This document shows, piece by piece, positions 23,952 to 25,639 of a DNA stretch of 64,000 nucleotides. Within the stretch, counting starts at the first letter, position 1. Each line of letters begins with the position of its first letter. The translations under genes and the position numbers were made by a program. Below the pieces are notes generated by a model. The model worked only from the letters and a program-made list of their open reading frames with translations. It ran no database searches and was not told where the DNA came from. Location: positions 7,513 through 71,512 of the forward strand of contig JAFGFA010000009.1 of assembly GCA_016931275.1 (NCBI GenBank), given 5' to 3'. Source of the stretch: Parachlamydiales bacterium (GTDB lineage: Bacteria > Chlamydiota > Chlamydiia > Chlamydiales > SM23-39).

Positions 23952-24314
23952 GGGGGTGTCCTGGATTCGACTTGGAAGTGCAATTAAAAAGGCATGCAGA
24001 GGATGTCGGTTGGCCTCTTAAAAAACCGATAAAAGAATAACTGGCAAAGAACCTGCCATTGCTGCTTAAGACCTAACAGTTTTAGTAGCACAGTAGCCTA
24101 AAATTAGACCAAGAGTTTTAGAAATCTACTGTCATACATCTTGGTGTGAGAATATCTTTTCCCTTCCTTAAAGATAAATCTCGAGAAATTAAGGAAGAAA
24201 CTTAGGTTCTATGTGGGGCGCCTTTCACCGAACTTAAGTAACAAAAAGGCGATAAGCATGTAGTCATTTTAATTAATCTGTCTAAGGACGAGAGTTCGAT
24301 TCTCTCCACCTCCA
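23952..24314 (+). ncRNA. ssrA: tmRNA (SsrA)
   Basis: 5' GGGGGUGUCCUGGAUUCGAC. The acceptor stem pairs with CACCUCC at 24307-24313, including the G3:U pair, with discriminator A at 24314. T-arm GAGAGTTCGATTCTCTC, conserved UAAGCAUGUAGU. Tag frame ends GGC AAA GAA CCT GCC ATT GCT GCT TAA at 24043-24069 (..GKEPAIAA*). CCA is not encoded. Confidence 0.93.
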
Positions 24315-24316
24315 TT
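24291..24316. repeat. direct repeat copy 1 (ssrA 3' end; attL-like)
   Basis: AGAGTTCGATTCTCTCCACCTCCATT. It recurs at 25614-25639 with one mismatch. Confidence 0.9.
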
Positions 24317-24350
24317 CCAAGTTATTTATTTTTCAGCTATATATGAAAAG

Positions 24351-24405
24351 ATGTATACAAAAATAGTGTTTTTGTATACATTTAACGCTATGATGTATAC
24401 AAAAC
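24351..24405. promoter_or_regulatory. perfect 13-bp inverted repeat plus a third half-site upstream of fic (candidate operator, arm site or ssrA terminator)
   Basis: ATGTATACAAAAA (24351-24363), spacer tagtg, TTTTTGTATACAT (24369-24381). A third copy ATGTATACAAAAC lies at 24393-24405, 16 nt before the fic ATG. Confidence 0.5.
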
Positions 24406-24420
24406 ATAAGGTTTTTACAT

Positions 24421-25572
24421 ATGTGGCAGAAAATAGGTAACTTAATACAACAACAAAATAATTTCAAAGCGTTTATTCCTCTACCTTTCCCTCCAAAGGA
24501 ACCATTGATTTTATCACCTGAATTACAAGTTAAACATGGAGAAGCAATGAGAATGCTTGGAAAACTAGATGGCATCAGTCAATTGCTTCCCGATGTTGAT
24601 TTTTACCTTTTAATGTTTGTTAGGAAAGAAGCAGCCTCATCCAGCCAAATAGAAGGAACTCAAGCCACTATGATAAACGCCATAGAAGCTGAAATATCTC
24701 CGCCATCTTTTCAAGCAAAAGATGTGGGTGATATAATTTGTTATGTACGCGCTCTAAACTATGGAATAGAACGATTAAAAGATATCCCTCTTTCCGTTCG
24801 TTTAATAAAAGAAATACATCAAAAATTAATGGACGATGGCCGAGCAACGCAACATCCTTTCCCTGGAGAATTCAGGTATACACAAAACTGGATTGAAGGA
24901 ACTCTTCCTTCAAATGCAAAATTTGTTCCTCCTCCTGCAGAAGAAATATCCAGATGTATTGGAGATTTAGAAAACTTCATACACGATAAAAAAAGCTCTT
25001 TTTCTTCTCTAATCAAGGCTGCATTATTACATTCTCAATTTGAAACGATACACCCTTTTACGGATGGTAACGGTAGAACAGGAAGATTATTAATAACCTT
25101 ATTTCTTTGGCAGGAACAATTACTAGATAAACCGCTGCTATACTTATCAAGTTTTTTTAATAAACACCAAGACTTGTATTATGAAAAATTACAAAAGTAT
25201 CATAGCTCTAGAGCTGAAATACATGCCTGGTTAGACTTTTTCTTTGAAGGGATAATCACTACAGCTGATTCCGCTTGCAAAATCGCTTCTAAAATTAATC
25301 AAATTCGTGAACAGGATATGATAAAAATTTCAAAACTTGGCAAAGTTGCTTCTTTATCTGCTAGTGAAGTTTTAAAAAAATTATTCAGTCAACCAATCGT
25401 TGATGTAGCAAAAATTCAAAAATGGACAAAAACAACTAGAGCTGGCGGACAAAAAATTATTGATCGTTTTATTAATTTAGGTATTTTAATTCAAAGTGAC
25501 CCTAAAAAAACCTATGGAAGGACATATGAATATCGTTCATACATGCAAGTTTTTGAAAATGATAGCGAATAA
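24421..25572 (+). CDS. fic: Fic family protein (AMPylase-type), class II with internal inhibitory helix and C-terminal wHTH-like tail
   Basis: Fic motif HPFTDGNGRTGR at 25051-25086. Inhibitory motif S-x-x-x-E-G (SSQIEG) at 24640-24657, N-terminal to the core. Confidence 0.92.
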   Translation: MWQKIGNLIQQQNNFKAFIPLPFPPKEPLILSPELQVKHGEAMRMLGKLDGISQLLPDVDFYLLMFVRKEAASSSQIEGTQATMINAIEAEISPPSFQAKDVGDIICYVRALNYGIERLKDIPLSVRLIKEIHQKLMDDGRATQHPFPGEFRYTQNWIEGTLPSNAKFVPPPAEEISRCIGDLENFIHDKKSSFSSLIKAALLHSQFETIHPFTDGNGRTGRLLITLFLWQEQLLDKPLLYLSSFFNKHQDLYYEKLQKYHSSRAEIHAWLDFFFEGIITTADSACKIASKINQIREQDMIKISKLGKVASLSASEVLKKLFSQPIVDVAKIQKWTKTTRAGGQKIIDRFINLGILIQSDPKKTYGRTYEYRSYMQVFENDSE

Positions 25573-25613
25573 TTAATTCACAATAGGGTTCTTCTGGTTT
25601 TTTTTGTGGATAT

Positions 25614-25639
25614 AGAGTTCGATTCTCTCTACCTCCATT
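25614..25639. repeat. direct repeat copy 2 (attR-like)
   Basis: AGAGTTCGATTCTCTCTACCTCCATT. The single C-to-T difference from copy 1 is at 25630. Confidence 0.9.

Follow-up and report, generated by a model that had tools for sequence, protein, structure and literature searches.

We analyzed a 64,000-nucleotide stretch of chlamydial contig JAFGFA010000009.1 (the window, by which we mean this whole stretch) and, within it, the region that follows ssrA, the gene for tmRNA. The gene occupies positions 23952-24314 of the forward strand (ARAGORN; Rfam RF00023, 161.8 bits, E = 8e-65), and its 3′ end appears to be the attachment target for an array of three small cassettes, the first of which carries a fic gene. 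Taken together, the data make it probable that the 26-nt direct repeat bounding the fic unit is an integration scar at the ssrA end, and that the cassettes of the window, all three of which encode no recombinase, were made by a family of large serine recombinases.

Three repeat-bounded cassettes behind ssrA

The 26-mer AGAGTTCGATTCTCTCCACCTCCATT is present in two copies on the forward strand. Copy 1 (24291-24316), on the attL side, consists of the ssrA T-arm and acceptor end plus TT, and copy 2 (25614-25639), a type 1 repeat on the attR side, differs from it by one C-to-T change at 25630. With up to three mismatches allowed, the window contained these 2 matches against 0 in 100 shuffles. The pair and its single substitution had been described in an initial annotation of this DNA, and we could reproduce both. 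The same annotation had listed a fic gene and an upstream palindrome as the only content of the 1297 nt between the copies, and this description was borne out by Pfam and by reading the palindrome in the sequence: fic is the sole convincing gene there, and the unit is without integrase, with no recombinase between the repeats. A tRNA-like gene at the second copy, which the annotation had named as a refuting outcome, was ruled out, as neither ARAGORN nor Rfam (E ≤ 1) detected one at that position.

The proposal that the islet is a stand-alone unit, by contrast, had to be revised. Two further ssrA-end-derived repeats, both of type 2, follow on this strand (27012-27041 and 28892-28921), and the 27-nt pattern common to them gave 2 matches in the window versus 0 in shuffles. 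The repeat-bounded region therefore reaches ~28921 and not 25639, and the islet is the first of three cassettes, which end at 25639, 27041, and 28921. The order in the window is ssrA, fic, type 1 repeat, cvfB, type 2 repeat, a flavin mononucleotide (FMN)-reductase fragment with an ArsP permease, and a degenerate type 2 repeat. Cassette 2 (25640-27011) carries cvfB on the reverse strand (25936-26805; S1_2 and CvfB winged-helix domains by Pfam), and its distal boundary is the type 2 repeat AAAAGTTCTGAACGCGTCCAACCACCTCCA (27012-27041), which matches the consensus of 54 type 2 instances. Cassette 3 (27042-28891) carries the FMN-reductase fragment on the reverse strand (27336-27659; Pfam), which looks truncated because its open reading frame (ORF) spans just profile positions 66-121 of 152, and the ArsP-type permease on the forward strand (27832-28806; Pfam). 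Its end is marked by the degenerate type 2 repeat AAAAGTTCTGAACGCGTACCACCACCTGTT (28892-28921, forward strand), the outermost recognizable boundary. We note that a terminator-like hairpin (AACCAACA...TGTTGGTT and then a T-run, 27058-27081) is situated 17 nt past the first type 2 repeat, at the start of cassette 3, and that an 86%-identical copy of the FMN-reductase ORF is found in a related locus (L015) ~8.4 kb downstream of ssrA.

The fic gene itself (24421-25572, forward strand) encodes a SoFic-type class II Fic protein of 383 aa with Pfam matches to Fic_N (2.6e-20) and Fic (2.6e-22). It matched the PADLOC SoFic model at 4.1e-108 (residues 14-379 against model positions 5-359 of 361), and the closest solved structures are the SoFic entries 3EQX and 3ZCN (E ~1e-25, ~92-96 bits over ~320 residues). 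Both the catalytic motif HPFTDGNGRTGR and the inhibitory-helix motif SSQIEG are intact in the translation, and they conform to the HxFx(D/E)GNGRxxR and N-terminal (S/T)xxxE(G/N) patterns of class II. Based on these sequence features, the product is a candidate self-inhibited SoFic-type AMP-transferase and fic a candidate anti-phage (defense) gene. The protein resembles SoFic of Shewanella oneidensis in its full-length match to the PADLOC model, its structure matches, and its two intact motifs, but the sequence similarity is moderate, and the setting in an ssrA cassette with a triple operator is specific to the chlamydial group. This putative operator (24350-24404, forward strand) comprises three ATGTATACAAAA half-sites, two of which form a perfect 13-nt palindrome (24351-24363 and 24369-24381) while the third is a direct copy at 24393-24404. 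The ATGTATACAAAA boxes are kept in 8 fic cassettes on different contigs, with spacers that vary, and fic is probably self-regulated through this conserved putative operator.

Repeat types and cassette content in related loci

We compared the window with 119 related loci, consisting of a set of 80 recovered through IleRS, 32 more from a metagenome scan for the type 1 form, and others. In many of the IleRS loci, ssrA was followed by direct repeats of its own end. In total, the 119 loci contained 165 distinct repeat contexts, namely 60 ssrA ends, 37 type 1 repeats, 54 type 2 repeats, and 14 others. All 49 non-ssrA repeats in ssrA-bearing loci were located downstream of ssrA on the same strand, and in each of the 23 multi-repeat loci every repeat was on one strand; the cassettes between them occur in both orientations. 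Unit length had a median of 1475 nt (interquartile range 909-1978, full range 254-8414). Some arrays were long, with ssrA and three type 1 copies in L112, five type 2 copies in L043, and seven repeats within 9 kb in L115.

At least three repeat types could be told apart by the length of their identity to ssrA (26, 21, and 14-9 nt). Type 1 repeats have 24-26 nt in common with ssrA and retain the whole T-arm, whereas type 2 repeats share just the last 9-14 nt and have a conserved left arm, CCAATCAAAAGTTCTGAAYGYG, that is not derived from ssrA. Type 1 repeats, too, are preceded by a conserved non-ssrA arm (ATTTAATCYATTTTATTCYRGTTTA...ATAG; consensus ATTTAATCYA...TTCYRGTTTA). Since these left arms are conserved across genomes and unlike ssrA, they point to element-derived arms and not to local duplication, in support of the earlier view of the repeat as an integration scar at the ssrA 3′ end. 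In the window, alignment with the 37 type 1 repeats placed this arm in the 41 nt immediately left of the distal repeat (25573-25613, forward strand). It is partly conserved: the TTCTGGTTT core is kept, but the outer ATTTAATCYA box is poorly matched. A phage origin was considered and discarded, as the type 1 repeat pattern had no match in a viral contig collection.

By Pfam, the cassettes carry several Fic subfamilies, AbiEii/AbiEi, RhuM, DUF1016/YhcG nucleases, AAA_14+DUF4143 and other ATPases, SocA-Panacea antitoxins, Cass2, nucleotidyl- and phosphotransferases, ankyrin proteins, and insertion sequence (IS) transposases. The Cass2/GyrI-like domains, described as integron-associated effector-binding domains, were seen in L096 (1400-2050), L038 (1544-2101), and L040 (706-2100), in the last case fused to a penicillin-binding transpeptidase domain.

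The leader and fic recur as a cassette on at least 8 different contigs and in different positions, starting ~105 nt past the ssrA end in the window, in L081 (the source organism's own contig), and in L084 and L086, past a type 1 repeat in L007 and L085, and past a type 2 repeat in L082 and L113. The 3′ side is variable, with 41 nt to the repeat in the window versus ~300 nt in L101 and L113 and an extra ORF in L084, L096, and L105. The window's Fic was 83% identical to the L007 copy and 81% identical to those of L082/L083, while IleRS identities were 62% and 68-70%, respectively; this excess over IleRS supports horizontal acquisition. The cvfB cassette of the window recurs after a type 1 repeat in L101 and after a type 2 repeat in L084, and its DNA is 89-92% identical to the window in these two loci although fic is only 74-82% identical, which suggests turnover or exchange at the ssrA-proximal position. 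Composition gave a mixed result. GC content at third codon positions (GC3) is 0.22 in fic compared to 0.30-0.38 in ileS, lepB, and cvfB, but a sliding-window GC profile of the islet was not distinctive, so of the compositional features for which the initial annotation had proposed a test, only fic GC3 stood out. The horizontal acquisition of fic that it had claimed is thus supported by the Fic and IleRS identities, the low GC3, and the greater divergence of fic than of the adjacent cvfB cassette.

The comparison of the locus among relatives that the same annotation had called for likewise succeeded in part: the cargo behind ssrA varied and arrays were present, but no clean empty site was found among the 80 ileS loci, where downstream synteny was not conserved. 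cvfB adjoins ssrA only in L081 and one close relative, L084. Exact look-ups with the window's CvfB returned no match, and those with its Fic returned only a 2.7-kb contig identical to the window; neither recovered a circle or an empty-site sequence.

A large serine recombinase at the ssrA end of relatives

In related loci, we found a large serine recombinase of 501-512 aa with Resolvase, Recombinase, and Zn_ribbon_recom domains, whose closest solved relative is the A118 serine integrase. In at least seven loci (L021, L023, L035, L040, L043, L051, and L055), its gene lies directly downstream of ssrA on the opposite strand, i.e., convergent with it, and the ORF overlaps the ssrA 3′ end, where the reverse complement of GTTCGATTCTCTCCACCTCCA encodes the residues WRWRESN. 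One such element, in L040, is 8.4 kb long and terminates in a type 2-like repeat. The recombinase also adjoins a type 1 repeat in L012, L108, and L109, a second copy in L021 adjoins a type 2 repeat, and remnants of its C-terminal tail were seen to the left of many type 1 repeats. An inverted repeat lies inside the 3′ coding end of the recombinase gene, within 30 nt of the right-hand edge of the ssrA end or repeat, and shows compensatory changes between two recombinase subgroups (TGGAT...ATCCA versus TGGAC...GTCCA; L040, L043, and L108 versus L012, L035, and L051). This could be a binding site or a mere consequence of coding. Upstream of and adjoining the recombinase gene in L040 (5816-7663), a protein with SLFN_AlbA_2 (Schlafen), HATPase_c_4, and Fic-like_C domains and without a Resolvase domain is encoded, and in L109, L019, L021, L023, and L024 the recombinase gene is preceded by an ORF that is related but shorter, making this protein a candidate regulator or directionality factor.

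A homologue with 64% identity is present on pS13 of Neochlamydia sp. S13 (L123, NZ_AP017978.1, 6001-7409), where it runs into an oppositely oriented tRNA-Tyr gene and ends, with the tail WGRLDSNQRRP, within the 3′ end of that gene. The recombinase family thus also targets tRNA genes. pS13 is a 231-kb "plasmid" with housekeeping-looking genes (mgtE, surE, and ttcA). It was also the best plasmid match to the recombinase, but we rejected it as the carrier of an attP because pS13 has no ssrA-type repeat, its recombinase gene overlaps tRNA-Tyr, and no distal repeat was found within 6 kb. In L118 (1964-3704), a different large serine recombinase (Resolvase and Recombinase domains) is followed by an ORF whose tail, TRWDSNPRT, corresponds to a tRNA-like T-arm in reverse complement; no tRNA gene was detected there by ARAGORN.

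The initial annotation had read the repeat as the signature of a tyrosine integrase, and here the results pointed elsewhere. No tyrosine integrase was detected by Pfam in ~100 cassette ORFs (~75 representative ORFs joined into 20 pseudo-proteins, together with ten ORFs of L040 and L051). We also searched all 1913 ORFs of the 119 loci and the window with phmmer and with a small profile built from Escherichia coli IntA, XerC, and XerD, and found no similar ORF except for one Xer homologue in L037, a locus without a detected tmRNA gene; phmmer with E. coli IntA gave no match even at E ≤ 10. The L037 hit serves as a positive control, as it shows that the search is able to detect chlamydial tyrosine recombinases. 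The enzyme linked to the junctions in relatives is instead the large serine recombinase, of which the window contained no homologue (tblastn, E < 1e-4).

We propose that an incoming element would bring its own copy of the ssrA end, so that the gene would be rebuilt upon integration, while the displaced original end would become the distal repeat. Further rounds of insertion at the restored gene end would stack units, with the newest next to ssrA. Judging from the relatives, the enzyme family would most likely be that of the large serine recombinases, whose gene, in other Chlamydiota, occupies the end of the element nearest to ssrA in convergent orientation, with the ssrA end itself supplying the last codons (WRWRESNS). 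Units without a recombinase would be deletion derivatives or cassettes moved in trans, as has been proposed for cis-mobilizable elements. The repeats, the array, the identity of the cargo, the overlap of recombinase and ssrA in relatives, and the lack of tyrosine recombinases are observed, and from them we infer that a serine recombinase made the junctions, where it would cross over, and that the fic unit of the window no longer moves.

A possible crossover site is suggested by the type 2 repeats, in which the T-arm AGTTC motif and the shared TCTCTCC block are exactly 5 bp further apart than in ssrA (spacer TGAATGCG versus GAT). In the A118/LI integrase system, attP half-sites put the zinc-ribbon-domain motif ~5 bp further out than attB half-sites. 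By analogy with this spacing, type 2 would be a P-type arm with the crossover to its right. A type 2 variant, TCCAACCACCTCCA, has only CCACCTCCA in common with ssrA, which would place the crossover within those 9 nt if one enzyme makes all junctions. The C-to-T change of the window (25630) falls inside this 9-nt block, which is common to all repeat types, and could block excision. Given this change, the weak match of the outer left-arm box, and the absence of any recombinase from the 64 kb, the fic unit of the window is probably now inherited passively. We note that a variant, CCATCTCCA, replaces CCACCTCCA in distal type 2 repeats of the unrelated loci L102, L115, L043, L006, L050, and L088, and it may represent a true site variant and not random decay.

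Several observations weigh against a serine recombinase as the maker of the junctions. The right-hand flanks of the repeats are diverse, with 140 of the 165 fitting none of three recurrent motifs that we searched for, which is unlike the expectation for a serine integrase that needs a conserved second half-site. Dyad symmetry was sought in the right-hand arms, and they contained no clear mirror of the AAGTTC motif of the left arm. The left half of type 1 is attB-like, which, combined with the diverse right flanks, is at odds with a simple serine-integrase picture, and the 24-26 nt of type 1 identity with ssrA is a length typical of tyrosine integrases, for which the IntA/XerC/XerD search has limited reach where they are very divergent. 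The recombinases of L040 and L108 are 95% identical, yet they lie beside a type 2 and a type 1 repeat, respectively, so any assignment of sites to enzymes is provisional. The link to serine recombinases comes wholly from relatives whose IleRS is ~60-66% identical, and no recombinase of any kind was detected in the window, where it was sought by homology and not by a full Pfam scan of the ~55 genes. Lastly, what is established for the chlamydial enzyme is its domain architecture and its similarity to the A118 integrase, and any orthology to DsiB or CcrB, recombinases of known elements discussed below, is putative.

A different possibility is that the fic unit is still live. A recombinase encoded at another place in this genome, or one from a co-resident element, could then excise it and insert it anew in trans, much as on an integron-like or SCC-like cassette platform. 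Most of the 74 inter-repeat units are without a recombinase, and yet the same cargo modules (fic, AbiEii/AbiEi, DUF1016, RhuM, and Fic-ankyrin pairs) recur at different array positions and with different repeat types. Mobility would also fit the relatives that share the cvfB cassette, which carry other fic alleles, other 3′ ends, and other repeat types. Furthermore, three independent short-read contigs with fic cassettes, L081, L084, and L086, start precisely within the ssrA 3′ end. These starts suggest assembly-graph branch points that stem either from the conserved ssrA end or from alternative junctions, but the breaks may just reflect the conservation of this end among co-occurring chlamydiae. 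Given that the window has no recombinase, that its distal repeat carries a point change in the 9-nt block and has a short, partly degenerate left arm, and that neither a circular nor an empty-site sequence was recovered, we regard a unit that is still mobile as the less likely reading. An integron cassette array in the strict sense was rejected on other grounds: there is no tyrosine recombinase, ileS is upstream of ssrA in the window and 53 related loci, cassettes occur in both orientations, and fic has its own operator-like leader.

We consider it improbable that the unit goes back to a classical ssrA island of the tyrosine-integrase kind, comparable to CP4-57 of E. coli, from which the integrase has since disappeared. 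In favor of such an origin, an identity block of 24-26 nt at the 3′ end of a tRNA or tmRNA gene (tDNA), here with the whole T-arm retained in type 1, is what tyrosine integrases usually leave behind, and their favorite target is ssrA (PMC4383910). However, the cassette ORFs contained no Phage_integrase-type protein, the wider homology search yielded no IntA-, XerC-, or XerD-like ORF beyond the L037 homologue, and the recombinase found repeatedly at the junctions is a serine enzyme whose reading frame runs through the site. Local duplication or gene conversion of the ssrA end without any mobile element is highly improbable, since despite a repeat that is short and close to its source, the inter-repeat DNA is unrelated cargo that differs among relatives, the left arms are conserved across genomes and unlike ssrA, and in relatives a recombinase gene is built into the junction.

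Known islands at ssrA and the surroundings of the array

The window array belongs to a known class, that of serine-recombinase ssrA islands with their cis-mobilizable units, which is here found in Chlamydiota with unusually small, integron-like cassettes. The ssrA islands of Dehalococcoides are tandem islands with a 20-bp repeat of the ssrA end and a conserved motif just upstream of it, and a CcrB-like large serine recombinase, DsiB, is encoded on the reverse strand next to attL, such that the 3′ end of its gene reaches into attL or ssrA (McMurdie et al. 2011, PMC3146451). Fifteen of these islands lack the integration module and were read as cis-mobilizable, and islands with vcrABC are ~12 kb in size (PMC3146451). 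The chlamydial loci share with them the ssrA 3′ end as the target, a direct repeat of this end at each boundary, tandem units downstream of ssrA (in the window as well as in relatives), and a conserved non-ssrA motif just upstream of the distal repeat, as well as the reverse-strand large recombinase beside attL that runs into ssrA in the seven relatives named above and the many units without a module. The window itself has no such attL-adjacent recombinase on the opposite strand, and its units therefore correspond to the module-less class. The two systems differ in that the chlamydial one belongs to Chlamydiota and not Chloroflexota, has far smaller units (median 1.5 kb versus ~12 kb), has at least three repeat types, and carries Fic, AbiE, RhuM, nuclease, and ATPase genes instead of dehalogenases; next to the large recombinase of L040, moreover, there is no small DsiA/CcrA-like serine recombinase but the Schlafen/HATPase_c_4 partner.

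Similarities extend to other mobile elements. Staphylococcal cassette chromosome mec (SCCmec) and the ccr-less pseudo-SCC elements occupy staphylococcal rlmH (orfX) and are 20-60-kb elements moved by the serine recombinases CcrA and CcrB. As in the chlamydial arrays, the 3′ end of a single-copy essential gene is targeted, the direct repeats are short, and some members of composite arrays have no recombinase and are mobile in trans only; SCCmec differs in its size, in having two recombinases, and in having a protein-coding target and not an RNA gene. Cis-mobilizable elements (CIMEs) of the Streptococcus thermophilus ICESt1 family were defined for tyrosine-integrase elements, and their mobilization in trans was shown experimentally (cited in PMC3146451). 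The chlamydial units resemble CIMEs in being att-flanked, without recombination or transfer genes, and in tandem with related elements, where the att-site status of the repeats is deduced from relatives; they differ from CIMEs in that the CIME definition derives from tyrosine-integrase elements and in that trans-mobilization is an experimental feature of CIMEs, whereas the chlamydial units are known from sequence. With CP4-57/IntA-type ssrA islands, as cataloged by Islander (PMC4383910), the window shares an intact tmRNA gene and a displaced 3′ fragment in the same orientation, but it lacks a tyrosine integrase on board, the only real gene between the repeats being fic, or nearby, and the enzyme of the relatives is a serine recombinase.

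According to the Islander paper, serine recombinases are not known to target tDNA (PMC4383910), which indicates that the serine-recombinase class of ssrA islands is little recognized, though not new. In the literature, we found the Dehalococcoides islands as the only counter-example to a targeting of tRNA and tmRNA genes by tyrosine integrases alone, and no description of ssrA islands in Chlamydiota. Serine recombinases that are built into the ssrA end in another, unrelated phylum would mark this as a recurrent strategy. In Neochlamydia, a homologue is built into the end of tRNA-Tyr in like manner. The arrays also show obligate intracellular bacteria exchanging small defense-type cassettes (SoFic, AbiE, RhuM, DUF1016 nucleases, and STAND/AAA ATPases) at one hotspot. 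Since genetic tools are scarce in Chlamydiota, a working recombinase and att pair could allow site-specific chromosomal integration, and the ssrA end was almost invariant over the 60 chlamydial loci sampled. More tentatively, environmental Chlamydiota might use the ssrA 3′ end as a platform for stacking cassettes. Units of one or two genes (median 1.5 kb), each closed by an imitation of the ssrA end, would be inserted, shuffled, and lost through a clade of large serine recombinases whose genes stop within their own attachment sites and whose targets can include tRNA genes. If true, this would be an integron-like reservoir of defense and toxin genes run by a serine and not a tyrosine recombinase, and it would supply Chlamydiota, a phylum without one, with a natural system for site-specific integration.

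The remaining features of the window concern the surroundings of the array. The neighboring genes encode a CT021-family protein, a long LepB, and an IleRS of 1030 aa, with ileS upstream of and divergent from ssrA, an arrangement kept in 53 of the 80 related loci, among which the best IleRS identity was 66%. From these neighbors and the 80 loci recovered through IleRS, the host is placed in an uncultured Chlamydiota lineage. ssrA is preceded by a promoter-like site, identified by consensus match only (TTGCCT-18-TATAAT with TG before the second hexamer, 23910-23939, forward strand, 12 nt upstream). Beyond the outermost repeat (28965-29997), we noted two overlapping ORFs, 29409-29738 and 29683-29997, together with a 132-aa N-terminal fragment of biotin-protein ligase that spans just profile positions 138-267 of 283. 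Of the two ORFs, only the first was scanned, and it matched the N-terminal part of NUDIX; the pair may be a single gene split by a frameshift. The genes in this region look decayed and are possibly older cassettes whose repeats are no longer recognizable.

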